Origin: a bacterium | GTDB taxonomy: Bacteria > J088 > JAWLBW01 | Assembly (NCBI GenBank): GCA_041690355.1 | Contig: JAWLHK010000010.1 | Coordinates: 62,001-126,000, forward strand | Length of the DNA: 64,000 nt | Reading direction: 5' to 3' | Part shown: positions 6,640 to 36,820 of the stretch, piece after piece | Position numbering within the stretch: position 1 is the first letter of the stretch | How the letters are laid out: every line of letters starts with the position of its first letter | Notes under the pieces: model-generated | Databases searched by the model: none | The model's input: the letters and a program-made list of their open reading frames with translations, nothing else | Told to the model about the DNA's origin: nothing | Program-made: the position numbers and the translations under genes

Positions 6640-7752
6640 TCAGATACGCATCGGCATGACGACGTTCGTGTACGTGAGGTCTTCTGCCCCGTCGACGACC
6701 GGCGCGACTACCCCCTGGCTCACATCGTCGTTGAGACCGATGAAGACCTTCTCGGTGCCGATTTCGGCCAGCACGTCGAGAATGTAGCGGGCGTTGAAAC
6801 CGATCTGCATCGACTCGCCTTGGTAGTCGGCATCGATTTCCTCTTGCGCGTCACCGACTTCGGGATTGCTCGAGCTGATCTTCAGCGTACCTGCCGACAG
6901 GCTCAGTTTGACCCCCTTGAACTTCTCGGGCGAGAGCAGGCTCACGCGGCGCAGCGAGTCGGCAAAGGCCACACGATCGACGAACACCTTGCGATCGCTC
7001 TTCTTGGGAATGACGACCTTGTAGTCCGGAAATTCCCCGTCGATGAGGCGCATCGAGATGACGAAGCCGTCCTTACGGCCCACGCAGTTGTTCCCGGCGA
7101 ACGCGAGCTGAAACTCGCCCCCTTCGAGGTGCTTCCGAAGTTCCGAAAAGCCCTTACGCGGAACGATGACACCCTTGGCAAGCGTCAGCGATTCGATGTT
7201 GTCGACCTTGCGCTCCACCAGGCTCAGCCGGTGGCCGTCGGTCGCCACGAGGCGCAGGCCACCTTCTGAACGCTCGATATAGATACCGTTGAGGTTGAAG
7301 CGCGTTTCGTCGGTCGAGACCGCAAAGATGGTCTTGGCGACCATGTCGCCGAGCACGGCCGCCGGGAGTCCGAAATAATTCGCGTCGGGAAACTCCTGCA
7401 CGAGCGGGAAGTCTTCGGGATCGAGGCCCATGACGTTGAAACGGCTCCGCCGCGACGAAATCTCGACGTTGAAGCCGTCGCCGCTGCGTACGAGCACCTC
7501 GCCCTCGGGGAGCTCCTTGACGATGTCATAGAGCTTCTTTGCATTCAGGCTGAGTGAGCCCCCCGTCGCCACCTCGGCGCTCACGCGGGCCGACACTCCC
7601 ACTTCCAGGTCGGTCGCCACCAGCTGCAGCTGGCCCCCCGATCCCCGGATGAGAATGTTGCTGAGGATCGGCATCGTGTTGCGCTTTTCGACCACGCTCT
7701 GCGTAACCGAGAGCCCCTTGAGGAACTCGTCCTTGGCAATCCGAAATTCCAC
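6640..7752 (-). CDS. dnaN: DNA polymerase III beta clamp
   Basis: ATDLE, VATDGHRL, GFNARY and C-terminal VMPMRI; GTG start. Confidence 0.98.
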   Translation of the reverse strand: MEFRIAKDEFLKGLSVTQSVVEKRNTMPILSNILIRGSGGQLQLVATDLEVGVSARVSAEVATGGSLSLNAKKLYDIVKELPEGEVLVRSGDGFNVEISSRRSRFNVMGLDPEDFPLVQEFPDANYFGLPAAVLGDMVAKTIFAVSTDETRFNLNGIYIERSEGGLRLVATDGHRLSLVERKVDNIESLTLAKGVIVPRKGFSELRKHLEGGEFQLAFAGNNCVGRKDGFVISMRLIDGEFPDYKVVIPKKSDRKVFVDRVAFADSLRRVSLLSPEKFKGVKLSLSAGTLKISSSNPEVGDAQEEIDADYQGESMQIGFNARYILDVLAEIGTEKVFIGLNDDVSQGVVAPVVDGAEDLTYTNVVMPMRI

Positions 7753-7764
7753 CGTTCGACCTCA

Positions 7765-8030
7765 CGCCTTCTTTTTCTTAATAGATTGAATAGAGAACTA
7801 CTAAGAAAAGAAGAAGAAGAATGGGTTGTTGAAAACCTGCGGGGATGAAATAAATCCCCTATTCTACACGAAAAATTCTACTCTGTCACCTGTCAATAAC
7901 CCGGCGCTCAACCTGTCGAAGCATTCCTGAAAACTCCTCGCTCGAACCGATGCGCCAGGTTACCATCCAGCCCTCCACACCCTGCTCCGGCACTGTACAC
8001 AGCCTTGTCCGCAGGGTTATCCACAAGCTC
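7765..8030. other. Probable replication origin oriC (dnaA-dnaN intergenic)
   Basis: Perfect TTATCCACA at 8017-8025 plus degenerate boxes; minus-strand TTTTCAACA (7827-7835) followed by CTT trio-like repeats and an AT-rich tract. Confidence 0.8.
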
Positions 8031-8079
8031 GCTTCGGTTCGCATCCCCTACTCCCCCTCCCGCTCGCGTCAAGGCAGGC

Positions 8080-8125
8080 AAAAAAAGAACCCGCCGTTCC
8101 CGGACGAACCGGCGAACGACGGGTT
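8080..8125 (-). terminator. Intrinsic terminator after dnaA
   Basis: Minus strand aacccgtcgttc...gaacggcgggtt followed by c and T7. Confidence 0.75.
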
Positions 8126-8145
8126 ACAGGAGGAGAATCGTGTCG

Positions 8146-9537
8146 TCAGCGCAGGGACCGCTTGAGAGCGTTCAGCACCGCCGCAAACTGCGGATCCGCG
8201 TGCATGCGGTTGCGCACATTGTCGCAGCCGTGCATGACCGTCGCGTGGTTCTTGCCACCGAAGCGCTGCCCGATGTCGGGAAAACTCAGGCTCGTAAGTT
8301 CGCGTGTCAGGTACATCGCCACGTGGCGCGGCTGCGTCAGCGAGGCCTTGCGTGACGAAGATTTCAGGTCCACCGGCCGTACGTTGTAGTAATCGGCCAC
8401 CTTCTTGATGATCTCTTCGCAGCTCGCCTCGCGCGCCTGGCCCATGTGAATGGCCAGCCACTCCTGCACGTTCTCGAGCGTCACCGGCTTGCCCTGAAAT
8501 TCGCTGTAGGCGCGGATGCGCTGGAGGTATCCCTCCAGGTCGCGCACGTTCGCGGTCGGCAGGCTGGCCAGAAAAATACGCACGGCTTCGGGGAGCGTCA
8601 GGCCGAGCGGCTCAGCCTTGCGCCCGATGATCGCCATCTTCGTTTCCAGGTCGGGCGGCTGAATGTCGGCGATGAGCCCCCACTCGAAGCGCGATCGCAG
8701 ACGCTCTTCGAGGTTCGGCATGTCTTTCGGGTACTTGTCGCTCGTAAGCACGATCTGGCGGCCGCTGTCGTGCAGCGAGTTGAAGATGTGAAAGAACTCT
8801 TCCTGCGTCGCCTCGCGGCCGGCCAGGGTGTGAACGTCGTCGATGAGCAGCACGTCGACCCGGCGGTACTTCTCCTTGAAGGCAATGGAGGTACCCTGCT
8901 GGATGGCGCTCACGAACTCGTTCATGAACCGCTCGGCGGGAATGCACTGAATGCTCTTTCTGCGATCGGCGCGAAAGACGGCGTGCCCGATGGCGTTCAG
9001 CAGATGCGTCTTGCCGAGCCCCGCGCCGCCGGCGATGAACAGGGGATTGAATGTGCGCCCGGGATTCTGCGCGACGGCGATGGCGCTGGCGTGCGCGACC
9101 TGATTGCTCGAGCCGACGACGAAACTCTCGAACGTATAGCGGGGATCGAGGTTCGGATGGTACTGGGCGCGCGCGAGTGCCTGCGCGGGGGCCGGCTCCG
9201 GTATGGACTCGGTTTCAAGTGCGCTCTGTACGGCACTGCCGTCAGGTGCCTCGCCGCCGCCGCCGGGGGTCCGCACGACGATCTCGAAGCGCGTTCCCGG
9301 CCAGACGTGCTCGACGGCCTGTGTGAGTTCAGGGCCGTATTTCTCGAGAACCCACTTGCGGTGGTACGCGTCGGGCGCCGTCACGGTCAACACCCCGTCG
9401 GCGAACGACAACTCCTGCAGCGGCCGGATCCAGAGCGCGACGGTCTGCGGATTCAGACGCTCGAGCAGCAGCCCTGTCACGGCGGCCCAATGGCCCTGGC
9501 GTATGTCCTGCAACTCGTGAAGCACGTCGAAATCCAC
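8146..9537 (-). CDS. dnaA: Chromosomal replication initiator DnaA
   Basis: YTFESFVVGSSN, GGAGLGKTHL, LLIDD, RLRSRFEWGL and FGGKNHATV. Confidence 0.98.
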   Translation of the reverse strand: MDFDVLHELQDIRQGHWAAVTGLLLERLNPQTVALWIRPLQELSFADGVLTVTAPDAYHRKWVLEKYGPELTQAVEHVWPGTRFEIVVRTPGGGGEAPDGSAVQSALETESIPEPAPAQALARAQYHPNLDPRYTFESFVVGSSNQVAHASAIAVAQNPGRTFNPLFIAGGAGLGKTHLLNAIGHAVFRADRRKSIQCIPAERFMNEFVSAIQQGTSIAFKEKYRRVDVLLIDDVHTLAGREATQEEFFHIFNSLHDSGRQIVLTSDKYPKDMPNLEERLRSRFEWGLIADIQPPDLETKMAIIGRKAEPLGLTLPEAVRIFLASLPTANVRDLEGYLQRIRAYSEFQGKPVTLENVQEWLAIHMGQAREASCEEIIKKVADYYNVRPVDLKSSSRKASLTQPRHVAMYLTRELTSLSFPDIGQRFGGKNHATVMHGCDNVRNRMHADPQFAAVLNALKRSLR

Positions 9538-9560
9538 AACTTATCCACACCTGTGGATAA
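9530..9560. promoter_or_regulatory. Cluster of DnaA boxes at the dnaA start codon
   Basis: TTATCCACA 9541-9549, TGTGGATAA 9552-9560, degenerate AAATCCACA 9530-9538; a further ATATCCACA at 9821-9829. Confidence 0.85.
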
Positions 9561-10070
9561 CTCCCAGTGTCCGAAGAACGAAAAAAACCGGCCTGTCGGC
9601 GGTCCGTCGAGCGAACCGCAACCGCAATCTGCACCAACCCTCACGGGAAAGAATCCGGAGACCGAAACGGCCTCCTTCGTTCGCTTGGAACGGAACACAG
9701 CTTATTCAAGCCGACCGGTCGTGTCAAGCCAGATCGGCCCCCGTCCGCCGAGATCCGAGCGGGACGCAGGTTTCCGGCGCACGCTTCCGATTTATCGCGG
9801 AATTCCAGCTACTTAAGAAGATATCCACAGGGGCGATCCGGCGACAGCCTTTGTCGAAATGCCCGTAGCCAAGCGATCCGGCTGGTCGCAAAAAAAAACG
9901 TGATTATAGCTGGGGCAAGCTGTGCCTGGCAATGCGGGAAACCTCCTCCGGGGCGCACGCCAGGAGGGGGGCTACCGACCGAGCCCCGCAGTTCGGTGCA
10001 TCGTCCTCTGGTGAGCCCCAGATTGCCAGATTTGAGCGTACCTTCCTTGTAATTATGGTATCATGACTCC

Positions 10071-11258
10071 ATGATTACAAGGATGATAACTCGCCGCCTG
10101 GCCTCCACGCTGCACCAGCGACTGGACGAAGCGCCGGCGGTCGTCCTGGTCGGGCCGCGACAGGTCGGCAAGACTACACTCGCACTTGCCGAAGGCGATG
10201 CGCGCGATGCCGAGTACCTCGATCTCGAGTCTGAGCGTGATCGGGCACGGCTCAGCGAACCCGAACTCTATCTGCCGGAATTCTTCGGGCGCCTGGTGAT
10301 CCTTGACGAGATTCACCGCACGCCAGGGCTTTTCCCCGTACTTCGCGGTCTGATTGATCGCGCCCGACGGCAGGGTTTCCGAACTGGACAGTACCTGCTT
10401 CTCGGTTCCGCTTCGCTCGACCTGATGCGCCAATCGGGCGAATCCCTGGCCGGGCGCGTGAGCTACCTGGAACTGTCTCCCCTCGATGCCCTCGAAGTCT
10501 CAGCGTCTGCTTCATCAGACACCCTGTGGCTGCGCGGAGGTTTCCCCGAAAGCCTGCGGGCGGCCGATGACGTTGCGAGCCTGCGCTGGCGCAAGGATTT
10601 CATCCGGACCTGTCTCGAGCGCGATGTTCCCCAGTTCGGACCGCGCATCGCAACCGAAACCCTGCGGCGCTTCTGGGGCCTCGTCGCGCATCACCACGCC
10701 ACTCTGCTCAATGCCGCACAGCTCGCACGTGGTGTCGGCATCGATGCGAAAACGGCGGCCTCCTACCTGGACCTGCTAGTCGACCTCTTTTTGTTGCGCC
10801 GTCTGCCGGCCTGGCACGCCAACGTCGGTAAGCGGCTCGTCAAATCGCCGAAGATCTACGTTCGTGACAGCGGGCTTCTTCACGTCTTGCTCGGCATCGC
10901 CGACCGCCCGGAGCTGCTCGGTCACCCGATTGTCGAAGCAAGCTGGGAAGGGTTTGTCATCGAGAACCTCCTGGCCGCCGCGGGCGACAGGGCCACGGGC
11001 TACTTCTACCGTACCACCGGCGGCGCAGAGATCGATCTGCTGCTAGTACGTTCCGATGGTAAGCAATGGGCCATCGAGATCAAGCGTTCTCTGAATCCGC
11101 GCCCGCGACGCGGATTCCATGCCGCCTGCGCCGACCTGATGCCCGACGGCCGATTCGTCGTGTATCCCGGCGATAGCGCCTTTCCACTCGGCGACGGCAT
11201 CGAAGCGCTTCCTTTGCCCGCGCTCATGCGGCGAATTGACGCCGGCATGCCCGCCTGA
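10071..11258 (+). CDS. AAA+ ATPase (AAA_14/DUF4143 type) with C-terminal PD-(D/E)XK-like segment
   Basis: GPRQVGKTT, LDEIH, LLGSAS, RGGFP, KRLVKSPK and EIDLL..AIEIK. Confidence 0.88.
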   Translation: MITRMITRRLASTLHQRLDEAPAVVLVGPRQVGKTTLALAEGDARDAEYLDLESERDRARLSEPELYLPEFFGRLVILDEIHRTPGLFPVLRGLIDRARRQGFRTGQYLLLGSASLDLMRQSGESLAGRVSYLELSPLDALEVSASASSDTLWLRGGFPESLRAADDVASLRWRKDFIRTCLERDVPQFGPRIATETLRRFWGLVAHHHATLLNAAQLARGVGIDAKTAASYLDLLVDLFLLRRLPAWHANVGKRLVKSPKIYVRDSGLLHVLLGIADRPELLGHPIVEASWEGFVIENLLAAAGDRATGYFYRTTGGAEIDLLLVRSDGKQWAIEIKRSLNPRPRRGFHAACADLMPDGRFVVYPGDSAFPLGDGIEALPLPALMRRIDAGMPA

Positions 11259-11486
11259 CCGGTCGAAGCCCAGGTGGCAAGGCCTCCTTCGGGCGATGCC
11301 CCGATTCCGCCGCCGCCGGTTTGCAGGCACGCGCCCGCATTGAGTAGAATGGCAGTAGGACAAGCCGGAAGCTCCGCTGACAGTCCGTACGCGGCGACAC
11401 CGTCCCAAAGGACGTCGCGACGGGCGTCTTTTTTTTCGGAGTTCCGCCGTCGGGGTGGATTCTTCAGGGGGAAATGGGGACCCAGT

Positions 11487-31172: not shown

Positions 31173-31807
31173 CGCGCGCTTCGCTGCTGGCGCTGCTTCT
31201 GTTTTCCGCCTGCGACTATGCGACGCAGGAGAACGTCGAGCGGCTGGCGCGCGACGTCGACGGCGTGAAGTCGACCCAGCGCGTGCTCGAGACGAAGGTC
31301 GACTCGGCCGTCCAGCAGAACCAGGCGCTGCAGACGAGTGTTTCGGCGATGGGGAGCGGCTTCAACGTGCTCACGCAGTCGATGGTCGACCAGGGCGGCC
31401 GCGTCGAAACCCTCGAAGCGCGCAGCGTGGCGCTCACCCGCGATCTGAGCCAGGTGCGCAAGGCGGTCGACCGCAGCGGCGGTTCCCCCAGCCGCGGCGC
31501 CGAGCCCGATCGCGTCGGGACTTATCTCGGATCCCGCGTCGACGTCATGACGCTCACCGAAGAGCCGGTGCGCATGCAGTGGTGCGAAGCCGCCGAGGGG
31601 ACGCAGGGTTATCTCGTGCCGGTCGGCGTGGAGCCGGATTACCGCACGTTGCGCTGCTGGCGCTTCGGCAGCGTGGCCATCTTCCGTGAAGAATCGCCCC
31701 AGGGGCCCATCGTGCGCTGCCTGCGCGACATCACGGTCACCGACGGCGCCCTCGAAGCGCTGGACTGCAAGGACTCGGGCGTCTACTACCGCATGGGGCT
31801 GCGGTGA
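31169..31807 (+). CDS. Hypothetical lipoprotein with coiled-coil N-terminus
   Basis: Lipobox FSAC; ATGA overlap with nadE. Confidence 0.7.
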   Translation: MTRASLLALLLFSACDYATQENVERLARDVDGVKSTQRVLETKVDSAVQQNQALQTSVSAMGSGFNVLTQSMVDQGGRVETLEARSVALTRDLSQVRKAVDRSGGSPSRGAEPDRVGTYLGSRVDVMTLTEEPVRMQWCEAAEGTQGYLVPVGVEPDYRTLRCWRFGSVAIFREESPQGPIVRCLRDITVTDGALEALDCKDSGVYYRMGLR

Positions 31808-31822
31808 CCGGGCGCCGCGGGC

Positions 31823-31853
31823 GCCATTCCTGATTCCTGATTCTTGATTCTTG
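31823..31853 (+). repeat. ATTC(C/T)TG heptamer array
   Basis: gcc attcctg attcctg attcttg attcttg. Confidence 0.9.
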
Positions 31854-31884
31854 AGGAGGAACGGACCGGAAAGGGCCAGGCAGG

Positions 31885-32457
31885 AAGGACTATGACCCCG
31901 AGACGGGTCGATATCTGTCGCTGGATCCCATGCGGGAAGAAGACTACGGATATGCAGCAAGCAATCCTCTGACTAAATTCGACCCGTTAGGGGAGGATAT
32001 TTGGATCGAAGGTCCTTCTGGTTGGGAACCCGGTTTCCATAGAAGTGTAAATGTTGGCGATCCAAATGGTGACTATACCGGGTTCAGCTTCGCTCTCATT
32101 CCTACGGTTGGGAACTTTCCATACACTGGCTCAGCCTATGAGGACAAATCCAAGGGCGGGCAAATAGTTGCTTATCTTAAAACTACAAAGCAGCAAGATA
32201 TCGAAGCCTTCCTTCTGATTAGCGAATACATAGGCAAGCATGGTAAAGGCTACTATTCGCCTTGGAACAATTGCATCACGTTTTCAAATGACCTGTTTGA
32301 TGTTCTAAAAAATCACTTCGGCGTACAGGAGACTACCCCACCCACGAGAATCGTTGCGGAGGCTAAGCACCCTGTTGAGAAAGCTTACAGAGCAATTAAA
32401 AGGAAGGTAAATGAGTTCAGGGATTGGGCGAACAAACGCAATGAGGCCGAAAAATGA
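31885..32457 (+). pseudogene. Orphan Rhs C-terminal toxin tip (Rhs core end plus toxin domain)
   Basis: In-frame DYDPETGRYLSLDP(M)REEDYGYAASNPLTKFDPLG; in-frame TGA at 31852-31854 upstream; AT-rich after DPLG; may be translated from ATG 31930. Confidence 0.85.
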
Positions 32458-32909
32458 AGAAGTCTCGGAGCGTAATCCAAGTTCGGGCTGTTGCATTTTT
32501 GGCAGCGATTTCCGTTGTTCTCACGTCGCCAAAAATATTCGTCCTTGATGCTGGTCCAGATCCCAGGGTGATTTCAACTGAATGGGTACCTGTTCTGTTG
32601 CTTTTCTTTGCATTGCTCGTTTATTTGGTTTCTCGTTTTCAGCTAGCCGCAAATGAAGGCGCGATTTCGCTAAAGACTTTTGTGACGTCCGTTGCGGAGC
32701 TGCTCTTGTCACTTTCAGGTTTGTTTGTATTATTTGCCGCGTTTACCTTGCTAACTGCAGGTGTTCAAGCGCTGAAGGGTAGTCCGGCAGTGGAGAGAAC
32801 TGACTTTGGGTATTTTGTTTTTTTAGCGATAGTTTACATAGTATTCGCTATTGCACTTTTCTTGTTTTGGAAGCGCTTTGGGATTCGTCACGAAACAGAT
32901 GGAAAGTGA
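32454..32909 (+). CDS. Putative immunity protein, ~4 TM helices
   Basis: ATGA overlap with the Rhs tip; AT-rich; hydrophobic. Confidence 0.65.
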   Translation: MKKSRSVIQVRAVAFLAAISVVLTSPKIFVLDAGPDPRVISTEWVPVLLLFFALLVYLVSRFQLAANEGAISLKTFVTSVAELLLSLSGLFVLFAAFTLLTAGVQALKGSPAVERTDFGYFVFLAIVYIVFAIALFLFWKRFGIRHETDGK

Positions 32910-32971
32910 CGTTGGAACAGAACACAGACAAGACCCACCCCGAAGCATTCCCCCTCGTAAATAGGCGCAGT

Positions 32972-33267
32972 GCCCGCGCGCGCCGGCGGCGGAGCCGCGA
33001 GCGAGTTTACATAACCTTTCCGGTTATGTAAAAGCGGGAGTGAGGGCAGCCTGCCGCTGCGCGGCGAAGGCTGATGGTCGATTGTCGATGGTCAACCCAA
33101 CCAACGCGCCCAAACCCATGCGCGTAGTGGCGGGCCACGGCGCATAAGAGCGCTCTTATGCGCTGTGCCGAATCCCTCCTTTGTCGGGACAGGCTCCGCG
33201 GCTCGCTCGCGGCCCTGCTCTCCCATCCTCCAACCTGAAAACACCCCGCCGCCGGCAGTGCGCGGGC
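32972..33267. other. Self-complementary element with XerD-arm-like and XerC-arm-like palindromes
   Basis: Outer stems 32972-32992/33246-33267 and 32994-33005/33202-33213; tttacataa-N9-ttatgtaaa; gcgcataa-N8-ttatgcgc. Confidence 0.65.
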
Positions 33268-33336
33268 GCGCGCCGTCGTGGAGGAACCGGTCGTCACCTT
33301 TCGCCTGGCGAGTGACTGCAGGGGATTGTGTCATAG

Positions 33337-33350
33337 TGCCATTTATGGCA
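33337..33350. promoter_or_regulatory. Palindromic operator candidate for the TA operon
   Basis: TGCCAT-TT-ATGGCA just upstream of the toxin GTG. Confidence 0.6.
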
Positions 33351-33360
33351 TTCTGCTCGG

Positions 33361-33660
33361 GTGCGGATTGAAAAAGCCCCTGAGTTCACGGATTGGATGG
33401 ACTCCCTGACCAGGAAAGAACAGGGGCAGATTCTGGCCCGCCTGCAACGCCTGGAGCTCTACGACTTTTTCGGAGACGCAAAGAGCTTGGGCGACGGGCT
33501 CGCAGAGCTTCGCTGGCAGAATGGATGGCGGGTCTACTTCGCCAAGGCCATGCGCAGTGATGGGTCAGTTGTCGTTTTGTTACTCGGGGGAATGAAGAAT
33601 GCCCAGAAAAAAGACATCGAAAGAGCGCGGCTTCTCCTTCGACGATATGCCGGCGGTTAA
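33361..33660 (+). CDS. Type II TA toxin, RelE/HigB-like (addiction module killer)
   Basis: GDAKSLGDGLAELR..GWRVYF..LLLGG.K..QKKDI pattern. Confidence 0.9.
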   Translation: MRIEKAPEFTDWMDSLTRKEQGQILARLQRLELYDFFGDAKSLGDGLAELRWQNGWRVYFAKAMRSDGSVVVLLLGGMKNAQKKDIERARLLLRRYAGG

Positions 33661-33931
33661 GATACGGAAGGGAGCCCCGGTTCGCCCTTACTCTCCCTCG
33701 GCCAAGATGCGGGAGAAGAGGTTCATCGCCGATGCGCTCATGGAATGTCTCAGAGACGGTGACGCGGAGGCGTTCAAGGAAATCCTCGGGGCGCATTTGG
33801 AAGCCATCAACAAAGCCGAATTCGCAGAGCGGACGCAGATCCCCAAGCGAACGCTTTACCGCATGGTATCGAAGCGGGGCAATCCCACGCTGGAGAACAT
33901 CGCCAAGGTCGTTCACGCCCTCTGCGCCTAA
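33599..33931 (+). CDS. HTH antitoxin (addiction module antidote, HigA-like)
   Basis: KAEFAERTQIPKRTLYRMVS..GNPTLENI; downstream of and overlapping the toxin. Confidence 0.88.
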   Translation: MPRKKTSKERGFSFDDMPAVKIRKGAPVRPYSPSAKMREKRFIADALMECLRDGDAEAFKEILGAHLEAINKAEFAERTQIPKRTLYRMVSKRGNPTLENIAKVVHALCA

Positions 33932-33962
33932 CTCTCGGCGTTCGCCTGGGCCTCCCCCCGTT

Positions 33963-34011
33963 CAGGAATCAGGCATCAGGAATCAGGAATCAATCACGCA
34001 TCAGGAATGGC
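33963..34011 (-). repeat. CAGGAAT heptamer array (inverse of the 31823 array)
   Basis: caggaat caggcat caggaat caggaat caat cacgcat caggaat ggc. Confidence 0.9.
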
Positions 34012-34025
34012 GCGGGCGCCCAGAT

Positions 34026-34829
34026 TCACTCGCCTTCACCTTCTGCGCCCTCGCCCGCGCCCGCCCCGTGCCGTCCGGCCCCCTTCACGAACCGCCCGAC
34101 ACCGTCCCGGATTTCCGGTGAGGCGAGCGAACGGAGACCGTGGCGGAACTCGTTCGCCAACGCGTCTTCCAGCGACATGCCGAACTGCTCGTACGCCGAC
34201 ACGCGATCGTTCCGCATGCACTCCTGGGGAAGCGTGGCGATCTGACGCGCGAGCAGTTCCGCCTCCTGGCGGGCCGTGCCCGGCGCGACCACGCGGTTCG
34301 CGAGGCCGATGGTGAGCGCCTCGTCGGCGTGCACCGCACGGCCCGTGAGGATCAGATCGAGCGCGCGCGACAGGCCGATCAGGCGCGGCAGGCGCACCGT
34401 GCCGCCATCGATGAGCGGAACCCCCCAGCGCCGGCAGAAGACGCCGAAGACCGCGTCCTCCTCCACCACACGAAGATCGCACCAGACGGCCAGCTCGAGT
34501 CCGCCGGCGACCGCGTGGCCGGCCACGGCGGCGATAACCGGCTTCGAGAGCAGCATGCGGCTCGGGCCCATCGGACCGTCCCCTTCGGGATCGATCCGGT
34601 TGGACCTCTCGGAACCGAACGCCTTCAGGTCCGCGCCGGCGCAGAAAACGCCGCCGGCCCCCCACAACACGGCCACGCGGGCTTCGGCATCCGCCTCGAA
34701 GGCGCGGAAGGCGTCGGCCAGCGCGTGCGCCGTGGGGCCGTCGACGGCATTGCGAACGTCGGGCCGGTCGAGGATCACCGTCGTGACCGGCCCGTTCTTC
34801 TCCACGCGAACCATGGCGGCAGCGCTCAC
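34026..34829 (-). CDS. Enoyl-CoA hydratase/isomerase (crotonase) family
   Basis: FCAGADLK, AVAGGLELA and GVPLIDGGTVRLPRLIG. Confidence 0.93.
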   Translation of the reverse strand: MSAAAMVRVEKNGPVTTVILDRPDVRNAVDGPTAHALADAFRAFEADAEARVAVLWGAGGVFCAGADLKAFGSERSNRIDPEGDGPMGPSRMLLSKPVIAAVAGHAVAGGLELAVWCDLRVVEEDAVFGVFCRRWGVPLIDGGTVRLPRLIGLSRALDLILTGRAVHADEALTIGLANRVVAPGTARQEAELLARQIATLPQECMRNDRVSAYEQFGMSLEDALANEFRHGLRSLASPEIRDGVGRFVKGAGRHGAGAGEGAEGEGE

Positions 34830-36506: not shown

Positions 36507-36820
36507 TGCCATCCCGGCAGTCACCTGCCGGGATGGCATTCCTGATGCCTGATTCCGAATACCTGAGAAGCAAGAACCTTCAGACAAAGCGCCAAGCGCC
36601 GAGCACCGAGCGCCAACCAGCAAGTACCAGCCGCCGGTCATCCCGGCAGCCACCGCAGGGATGGCATTCCTGATTCCTGATTCCGAATTCCTGAGAAGCA
36701 AGAACCTGCAGACCAAGCGCCAAGCGCCGAGCGCTGAGCGCCAACCAGCAAGCACCAGACTCCGGCCGCCGGTCTCTGCCCGTTCCGCTCAAGAATTAAG
36801 AATCAGGAATCAGGAATGGC
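36507..36820. repeat. Composite repeat: ~129-bp tandem duplication with hairpins and heptamer arrays, closed by an inverted heptamer array
   Basis: Units start at 36510 and 36639; 14-bp perfect IR at 36507-36538; caagaat/caggaat array at 36790-36820. Confidence 0.85.

Follow-up and report, generated by a model that had tools for sequence, protein, structure and literature searches.

In CTX-phi-type integrative mobile elements exploiting Xer (IMEX), the attP site exploits the host recombinases XerC and XerD by folding as single-stranded DNA, the stems of which re-form Xer arms, as outlined in PMC3442271. Integron attC sites are likewise presented as single-strand fold-backs, conserved in structure, that are the substrate of an Xer-related tyrosine recombinase (PMC4792948). 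The pdif modules of Acinetobacter are summarized as discrete units, often toxin-antitoxin pairs, bounded by Xer sites of alternating orientation with D or C arms facing inward (PMC6449649, PMC13141974). Recombinase-associated acquired interbacterial defense (rAID-1) clusters of Bacteroidales are introduced as arrays of orphan immunity or toxin fragments with skewed GC content, repetitive intergenic sequences and an XerD-family recombinase, and are defined by a 5' recombinase gene >44% identical to that of B. fragilis together with low-GC co-oriented genes (10.1101/471110). In Neisseria subflava, ordinary 28-bp C-D dif sites lie beside vgrG effector-immunity clusters, and the passages on these sites in PMC10210955 describe neither a fold-back nor arm palindromes. 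Here, we describe a fold-back element of about 310 bases that follows an orphan toxin/immunity gene pair in a 64-kb stretch of contig JAWLHK010000010.1 (the window; coordinates without a contig name are window positions) from a 4.64-Mb bacterial genome (G000). It carries, within one fold, a palindrome of two XerD-type arms and another of two XerC-type arms, an arrangement of which we found no description in open-access papers and preprints. The element very probably belongs to a conserved family of fold-back elements carrying Xer-arm hairpins, which appears to be previously undescribed, and we give a probability of roughly 0.45 to the proposal that it is a single-strand-folded, attC-like site for Xer-family recombinases.

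The window copy is composed of the following parts.

32941..33274, + strand: whole fold-back element; homology to the second genomic copy begins at 32941, and the folded core is 32964-33274
32964..32992, + strand: outer stem P1, 5' strand, pairing with 33246-33274 (minimum-energy DNA and RNA folds, repeat finder)
33246..33274, + strand: outer stem P1, 3' strand (minimum-energy folds, repeat finder)
32994..33005, + strand: second stem P2, 5' strand, pairing with 33202-33213 and leading directly into hairpin 1
33202..33213, + strand: second stem P2, 3' strand (minimum-energy folds, repeat finder)
33004..33034, strand not applicable: hairpin 1, two inverted XerD-arm-like arms, AGTTTACATAA-cctttccgg-TTATGTAAAAG
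33137..33166, strand not applicable: palindrome 2, two inverted XerC-arm-like arms, ACGGCGCATAA-gagcgctc-TTATGCGCTGT

Within hairpin 1, AGTTTACATAA occupies 33004-33014, the spacer cctttccgg 33015-33023 and TTATGTAAAAG 33024-33034, and the repeat finder reports perfect pairing over 11 nt per arm (33006-33016 with 33022-33032). The core of palindrome 2 is a perfect 24-bp palindrome, GCGCATAA-gagcgctc-TTATGCGC (33140-33163), which reaches 33136-33167 if one mismatch is allowed; the repeat finder gives it 19-nt arms that are 95% complementary. Both structures lie where a first-pass annotation of the bare sequence had placed them, and the two nested outer stems that it proposed are real, with limits in the predicted folds (those listed above) that differ slightly from the proposed ones. 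Long-range complementary arms were also returned by the repeat finder at 32982-32992/33246-33256 (100%), 32972-32992/33249-33269 (76%) and 32989-33005/33202-33218 (88%). Folded as DNA, the element reaches -109.2 kcal/mol, whereas 100 dinucleotide shuffles give -74.7 +/- 3.6 (z -9.5); folded as RNA, it gives z -8.5 on the + strand and -6.2 on the - strand, and in each of the three tests 0 of 100 shuffles was as good. The predicted fold is far above chance with DNA and with RNA parameters. A known RNA family was rejected, since no usable Rfam match was obtained: the window has three matches at E up to 10 (E 1.7-9.7), none of them inside the element, and eight related loci have a single one, at 23.8 bits versus a gathering score of 83. 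No intrinsic terminator (GC-rich hairpin with a T run) is listed on the + strand between 32910 and 33360.

Comparison with the dif site of the host gives these arms their likely meaning. The candidate dif of G000 is TTGGCGCATAA-tgtata-TTATGTCAACT at C14:46965-46992, the sole CATAA-N6-TTATG site with full arms; the one other site of this pattern (C18:54531) straddles a gene end. Motifs of the same type are found in G001-G004, with a single dif-like site in each (G002 has two pattern matches, of which one is dif-like). The GC skew on C14 is too weak to confirm a terminus, and the dif call therefore rests on motif, uniqueness and conservation. The XerC (C8) and XerD (C13) genes of G000 pass the NCBIfam equivalog cut-offs. 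On the XerD side, TTATGTAAACT, the reverse complement of the hairpin 1 5' arm, agrees with the host arm TTATGTCAACT at 10 of 11 positions, and only 6 places among 9.28 million positions in G000 come within one mismatch of that arm (dif, the two copies of the element and three others). On the XerC side, the left arm of palindrome 2, ACGGCGCATAA, agrees with the host arm at 9/11 positions, its inner nine bases, GGCGCATAA, being identical. The expected resemblance to the host dif arms is therefore present for the candidate site, which lies on another contig than the element. It is itself no chromosomal dif: it reads D-9 nt-D and C-8 nt-C, and the canonical site is the one on C14. Other CATAA/TTATG palindromes of G000 (C25:69061, C18:54531, C1:143668) are not element-like.

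Homologous elements occur at a second locus of G000, in two genomes of another phylum, on seven metagenome contigs and on one short contig of a public run. They are 310-560 nt long, and each is closed by a long outer stem and has two sequence-conserved hairpins. The second G000 copy (L002, C2:376031-376125) is 84% identical to window 32941-33034 and is immediately preceded by genes for an Rhs C-terminal toxin and for a membrane protein; its contig ends 109 nt past its hairpin. The idea that the homology of these two copies ends exactly at hairpin 1 is weakened by about 22 further nucleotides that align (17/22) past a 15-nt gap. Searched with nhmmer and a family profile, the whole of G000 contains these two places only, by which a high-copy repeat was rejected, and the 9-mer TTATGTAAA is confined to the same two copies in the 4.64 Mb of the genome.

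Our scans of the genome collection and of metagenomes used a pattern of an exact hairpin with 11-nt arms and a 3-7-nt loop. The collection yielded two loci, one homologous (L009, in a metagenome-assembled genome of Candidatus Rokuibacteriota) and the other an AT-rich intergenic palindrome that we took as unrelated. Seven of the 12 metagenome loci (L011, L012, L014, L016, L018, L021, L022) are GC-rich and share flanks and architecture, and the remaining five are not element-like. The phylum of the L009 genome, meant here by the other phylum, is represented by six genomes (G061-G066); the hairpin pattern is found in two of the six, and BLAST with the G064 element against G061-G065 found copies in two of these five (three in G064 and two in G061). 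A 371-nt element query had no match in 60 genomes, just 4 of which share the phylum of G000. A looser hairpin pattern matched 8 of 401 sampled genomes, two of them with the true element: G000 and G096, which we took to be G061 from its identical contig number and coordinates. The other matches are G170 and G323, with XerD-arm repeats beside a dif-like site, and four in AT-rich DNA. The AT-rich matches (L010, L013/L017, L015, L019 and L020; G059, G110, G200 and G377) were set aside as having neither the AG described below, nor the flanks, nor palindrome 2; the one in G377 (L048) was set aside with them uninspected. In G170 (L041, C96 ~1440-1650) and G323 (L042, C100 ~100-260), both from another family, a canonical dif-like site (..CCGATAA-gggata-TTATGTAAAC..) is directly followed by more copies of the XerD arm in both orientations, one inverted pair of ~22 nt enclosing ~85 nt that are possibly a small Xer-linked insert at dif.

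Among public reads, one metagenomic DNA run and no RNA run were listed for the element, and the DNA run gave a single contig of 191 nt. It matches 32978-33051 with 2 differences and 33126-33214 with 1 difference plus gaps; between these parts, 74 nt are swapped for 37 other letters, with both hairpin modules kept. Truncated copies retain the gene-proximal left part: L039 stops three bases into hairpin 1 and G064 copy 3 about 15 nt past it. No target duplication is visible at the boundaries of five related copies, whose exact ends are uncertain by a few bases. A GC-rich, hairpin-like segment of 56 nt forms a direct repeat flanking G064 copy 2 (L038 11349-11404 and 11786-11841) and is found again ahead of both G064 copy 3 and the copy in G061, which may mean that the repeated unit reaches beyond the left end of the fold-back.

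The copies in the other phylum have a different dif to be compared with. Its candidates read ACGTCCGATAA-gatata-TTATGT... in G061, G063, G064 and G066, with ATGTCCGATAA in G062, and the sixth genome had no match with the dif pattern used. The XerC arm of the element agrees at 10/11 positions with its own host dif in both G061 and G064, and in G061 both arms of hairpin 1 do so too (10/11); by sequence match, the arms carry host recognition sequences for XerC and XerD in G000 and G061 and for XerC in G064. The G061 candidate is present on two contigs (L023 C108, L024 C237) that have near-identical flanks and differ by one base in the XerC arm, which suggests a strain mixture or a duplicated contig in the assembly. 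Palindrome 2 of the other phylum has the same flanks as that of the window, an identical spacer in one copy, and ACGGCCGATAA as its arm on both sides. The region is GGGCCACGGC-GC-ATAAGAGCGCTCTTAT-GC-GCTGTGCCGAA in the window and GGGCCACGGC-CG-ATAAGAGCGCTCTTAT-CG-GCCGTGCCGAA in G064 copy 2, with GGGCCACGGC..ATAAGAGCGCTCTTAT..GC.GTGCCGAA common to both. Four of the five differing positions form a paired GC/CG swap, the very swap that separates the dif XerC arms of the two hosts. An arbitrary hairpin would not be expected to match the XerC arms of both hosts, and this tracking of dif in two phyla by compensatory changes is support that goes beyond anything the first-pass annotation had claimed.

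The fold appears to be under selection in other parts of the family as well. All nine family members tested with DNA parameters fold better than their own 60 dinucleotide shuffles (z -2.6 to -10.3). Among the three G061/G064 copies, 9 of 114 predicted pairs are changed on both sides and still paired, four of them in the stem abutting hairpin 1 and two at the centre of palindrome 2; in a group of four metagenome sequences, 6/126 pairs are compensatory, mostly in a long extra hairpin. The covariation that had been called for as a check is thus found in both groups. Eleven of the 13 copies have AGTTTACATAA as the 5' arm of hairpin 1, including an unpaired outer AG that the search pattern left free, and the two deviants have single uncompensated changes. 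The family was found mainly with a pattern that fixes hairpin 1, whose invariance is therefore partly by construction; the outer AG, the copies found by BLAST and palindrome 2 are free of this bias. Palindrome 2 is present in 10/13 copies, with six distinct spacers that are all self-complementary, which points to a hairpin rather than a duplex core. It is missing from L002 (contig end), from the truncated G064 copy 3 and from L022, which has a different hairpin in its place. The two arm-type hairpins are 79-102 nt apart in the predicted folds. The stems covary and the arm sequence is fixed; the stems therefore behave as a selected fold and the arms as protein recognition sequences.

The family is also tied to a type of cargo. 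Eight copies lie directly 3' of a co-oriented gene (window, L002, G064 copies 1 and 3, L039, L011, L012 and L022), in four cases at Rhs toxin/immunity modules. The gene in L002 is an immunity candidate; G064 copy 1 is preceded by an Rhs core end together with a DUF6765 toxin and a membrane protein, and copy 3 by two frames and an orphan Rhs core-end fragment that is 82% identical to the main one. The remaining neighbours on this side are a PsiE-family membrane protein (L039), a 103-aa frame (L011), a DUF7768 protein (L012) and a 550-aa lipoprotein-like frame (L022). Toxin-antitoxin genes come after the element in the window, in L011 (ParE and a helix-turn-helix, or HTH, protein) and in G064. 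In G064, 6.2 kb of DNA encoding ParE/HTH, a CHC2 primase and a tyrosine recombinase that is split lie between two full copies in inverted orientation; the island itself is at L038 (C11) 7139-11320. A colinear island of G061 (L040, C67 207-4125) has a CHC2/Toprim primase-helicase and an intact 329-aa Xer-like integrase, with Sel1 and Fic genes as cargo adjoining the element. This integrase is 34-37% identical to XerC/XerD of G000 and scores below the XerC/XerD equivalog cut-offs; after it, at the contig end, is a frame that by its appearance, with no profile match behind it, resembles the N-terminus of a second recombinase. A CHC2 primase lies 1.3 kb from the L018 copy, and IS66 and IS110 genes adjoin two of the metagenome copies. 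Further copies, for which the first-pass annotation had proposed a search, exist and stand beside variable conflict cargo.

In the window, the element sits within a 2.2-kb island of low GC content (0.47 at 32001-33000), between the following features.

31827..31854, + strand: left border of the island, an array of 7-nt repeats (TTCCTGA/TTCTTGA; repeat scan)
31855..32457, + strand: orphan Rhs C-terminal toxin frame, open from 31855, starting inside the Rhs core-end motif, with an ATG at 31930
32454..32909, + strand: candidate immunity protein, a hydrophobic membrane protein of 151 aa, co-oriented and directly 5' of the element
33361..33660, + strand: RelE/ParE-family (Gp49/HI1419-type) toxin (PF05973, 27.3 bits; TIGR02683, 72.3 bits, cut-off 62.85)
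33599..33931, + strand: HI1420-type HTH antidote (PF21716, 32.7 bits; TIGR02684, 45.8 bits, under the cut-off of 53.7)
33976..33989, - strand: right border of the island, where this 7-nt repeat forms an array in inverted orientation; judged by eye, the array spans ~33960-34008

The start of the toxin frame aligns with the Rhs core end of a G064 protein that matches PF03527 (46% identity over 39 residues, E 2e-7), and the candidate immunity protein has no Pfam family above cut-off. The placement between a toxin/immunity pair and a toxin-antitoxin module was therefore read correctly at first sight, and the stated 25 kb from oriC is close: dnaA lies at 8668-9150 on the same contig, ~24 kb from the element, the distance here being measured to dnaA. 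In G001, the only genome of the same family, the site syntenic to window 31791-34185 (L059, C1 1334-1501) has neither island, nor element, nor dif-like site. The bordering genes, for a lipoprotein-like protein and an enoyl-CoA hydratase, are just 167 bp apart there, and the island is therefore either an insertion in G000 or a loss in G001. Arrays of at least two units of the 7-nt repeat occur at 86 places in G000, which makes it a dispersed intergenic repeat. Another inverted pair of these arrays, 136 nt apart, is found at 36667-36680 (+) and 36803-36816 (-), and the island may be lodged in one such repeat unit. The RelE/ParE-family toxin gene is closely preceded by a small separate palindrome (33332-33355, CATAGTGCCAT..ATGGCATTCTG), which may serve the toxin-antitoxin pair as an operator. 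Elsewhere in G000, short Rhs-type modules with PF03527 matches under cut-off form tandem pairs (C2:372330-375959 and C5:68670-71131), and the element follows only the last of those on C2.

Set against the described systems, the element has partial likenesses to several of them. With IMEX attP it would share, on our proposal, a folded single strand with Xer arms and the use of host Xer. The fold is different: in IMEX attP two inverted whole dif-like sites pair into one C-centre-D stem, with XerC and XerD arms round a partly unpaired centre, whereas the element has separate D and C hairpins, each closed on the side of the central region. Nor is it integrated at the host dif with flanking dif-like sites, as it lies on the dnaA contig and dif on C14; there are no phage genes near it, unlike in IMEX, and none among viral contigs matched its pattern. 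Integron attC sites stand 3' of a promoterless cargo gene in a fixed orientation, and their cargo is rich in toxin-type genes. The element is likewise an imperfect fold-back 3' of its cargo gene, in fixed orientation, with a fold kept more than its sequence and toxin-type cargo. It differs from attC in that its boxes are local hairpins, not R and L boxes at the two ends of one stem with extrahelical bases, in that its arms are dif arms, and in its short arrays of at most 3 copies; there is also no adjacent IntI and attI, the six places with PF00589 in G000 being on other contigs. Toxin-antitoxin cargo and alternating orientation recall pdif modules, but those have ordinary C-6 bp-D plasmid sites, whereas the element has D-D and C-C with 7-10-nt self-complementary spacers in a fold of ~300 nt on chromosomes of other phyla, and no CATAA-N6-TTATG site, let alone an inverted pair of C-6 bp-D sites, flanks the window island. 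With rAID-1, compared here by its description, the common theme is orphan immunity genes and an Xer-like recombinase; at least two co-oriented low-GC genes are present in the window, but a 5' XerD-like recombinase is absent from the contig. The sites of N. subflava are similar in that Xer sites adjoin toxin/immunity clusters. Finally, repetitive extragenic palindromic sequences and bacterial interspersed mosaic elements (REP/BIME) and miniature inverted-repeat transposable elements (MITEs) are, like the element, intergenic, palindromic, sharply bounded and 3' of genes, with terminal inverted repeats. Unlike them, the element has 2-3 copies per genome (two in G000, three in G064 and two in G061) and not tens to hundreds, it is common to phyla, and its arms match dif. 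Of the explanations named beforehand as undoing the proposal, a known RNA family finds no match in Rfam, and a REP family is at odds with this low copy number.

From the conserved fold, the family, the match to dif, the covariation of the XerC arm with the host and the cargo context, we infer Xer binding, a single-stranded substrate and recombination. In the model that we favour, the element would fold whenever it becomes single-stranded, during replication, transfer or uptake, and each palindrome would form a hairpin, with one Xer arm as its stem and a loop in place of the dif centre. Hairpin 1 would present a hairpin-capped half-site for XerD and palindrome 2 one for XerC, or else for the Xer-like integrases of neighbouring islands; the acting enzymes may be the host XerC/XerD, the island integrases, or both. 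Tyrosine recombinases have a known cleavage polarity, and if it applies here, the 5' arm of each hairpin on the + strand would be the strand cut at the border between arm and centre. If both cuts were joined crosswise, one product would read C-spacer-D and the other its complement; D-D/C-C would thereby become ordinary C-spacer-D sites through a crossover between the two spacers, that of hairpin 1 and that of palindrome 2. Exchange between the hairpins, or with a dif-like partner, could in this way create ordinary Xer sites and insert, release or flip the adjoining DNA, and the element would travel with the gene 5' of it (toxin/immunity or toxin-antitoxin) as an attC-like recombination site. 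A bolder version, which we regard as doubtful, is that such "split dif" half-sites are a new class of Xer-dependent site, whose exchange at the stem-loop border would make ordinary dif-like sites of them and insert, excise or flip cargo, as an integron-like cassette system that has no integrase of its own and retunes its XerC arms in each host phylum.

A number of observations weigh against an attC-like Xer site. No recombination product through either palindrome (empty site, circle junction or inversion) was seen among the element loci; the originally suggested single-strand Xer target for conflict cassettes is partly supported, by its dif-like arms, copies and cargo. Neither D-D or C-C palindromes nor hairpin-capped half-sites are known to us as substrates of an Xer reaction, and a search of open-access papers and preprints for such reactions found none. 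The window element lies inside the inserted 2.2-kb island and not at its edge, tyrosine recombinase genes are absent from its contig (all six PF00589 places of G000 are on others), and nhmmer places the element after only two of the five Rhs-type modules of that genome. The family is rare, with 2 true carriers among 401 sampled genomes. In a blastn search of 72,556 plasmids the window element found nothing and the L018 element one 43-nt match, and viral contigs gave 0 matches to the hairpin pattern; a plasmid or phage origin was rejected on these two results. The XerC-arm match in G000 is weak when taken alone, as 420 places come within 2 mismatches, the covariation with host dif rests on two independent lineages, and the arms of hairpin 1 ignore the host at position 7 of the XerD arm (A in the elements, C in G000, T in G064). 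The spacers of hairpin 1, at 7-10 nt, are ill-suited to a fixed duplex core of 6-8 bp, a range that argues against such a core and for the hairpin form.

The strongest competitor, to which we give perhaps one chance in five, is that an island with a primase-helicase and an Xer-like integrase uses the element as its end, attachment site or priming signal, read by the island's own proteins, and that the window preserves a decayed remnant made up of the element and a toxin-antitoxin pair. The G064 segment bracketed by inverted full copies, with its ParE/HTH genes, its CHC2 primase and its broken tyrosine recombinase, would be explained in this way, as would the same order with an intact integrase on G061 C67 and the primase beside the L018 copy; plasmids are known to have branched single-strand initiation signals that primases recognise. 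An island-encoded recombinase would, however, give palindrome 2 no reason to follow the host dif, and neither integrase nor primase genes are found near the copies of the window and L002. Away from the island, cargo genes are followed by G064 copy 3 and by the copy in L039, and ends made by an integrase are expected to be direct repeats, not inverted copies of 350 bp. The fixed position and orientation directly 3' of a co-oriented gene would also suit a structured RNA with an incidental likeness to dif, such as a small RNA or 3' untranslated region by which the toxin/immunity transcript upstream is stabilised, terminated or regulated. The covarying stems have many one-sided changes from G-C to G-U, and the sense strand folds better by 9-44 kcal/mol in 5/9 members; these many G-U/G-T pairs and this strand asymmetry would suit an RNA too and to that extent count against the attC-like reading. 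Yet the other 4/9 fold about equally well on both strands, Rfam has no match, and there is no + strand T-run terminator inside the element. Both hairpins have fixed arms, and hairpin 1 even a fixed AG outside its pairing, amid stems that covary, and in each host phylum the dif XerC arm is matched by palindrome 2, which an RNA role does not predict; we consider this explanation unlikely.

Less likely still is an inert scar of past Xer events, for instance of a misaligned integration of a small dif-carrying circle, that persists by hitch-hiking. This alternative had been raised from the outset, and formally D'-s-D ... C-s'-C' would be the leftover of an antiparallel crossover between two C-s-D sites; truncated copies (G064 copy 3, L039) do exist. 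A scar would hardly keep the same architecture in two phyla and seven metagenome contigs, with compensatory changes that keep stems and spacers paired, as under purifying selection, and the 191-nt public-run contig has near-identical hairpin modules round a replaced middle. The least probable of all, by a little, is that the palindromes bind XerD and XerC without recombination, as a roadblock, regulator or protein sink. Sites of homodimer type would probably be poor recombination substrates, and XerD sites that act without recombination are cited in the literature. Binding alone would leave the conservation of the fold-back, the self-complementary spacers, the tie to mobile cargo and the rarity of the family unexplained. 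In addition, such XerD sites are reported in the terminus region, whereas the window element is 24 kb from dnaA.

Xer recombinases occur almost universally, and the few mobile elements known to hijack them do so by ordinary dif-like sites. If the attC-like reading is right, two arm palindromes within a conserved fold would offer tyrosine recombinases a substrate of new geometry, one that is especially notable for being common to phyla while its XerC arms are tuned to each host. A way would also be suggested for toxin-antitoxin pairs and orphan toxin/immunity modules to move without an integrase of their own. Host-matched arms would then be a simple genomic signature by which more cassettes can be found, and the idea is testable with two proteins and a few oligonucleotides.

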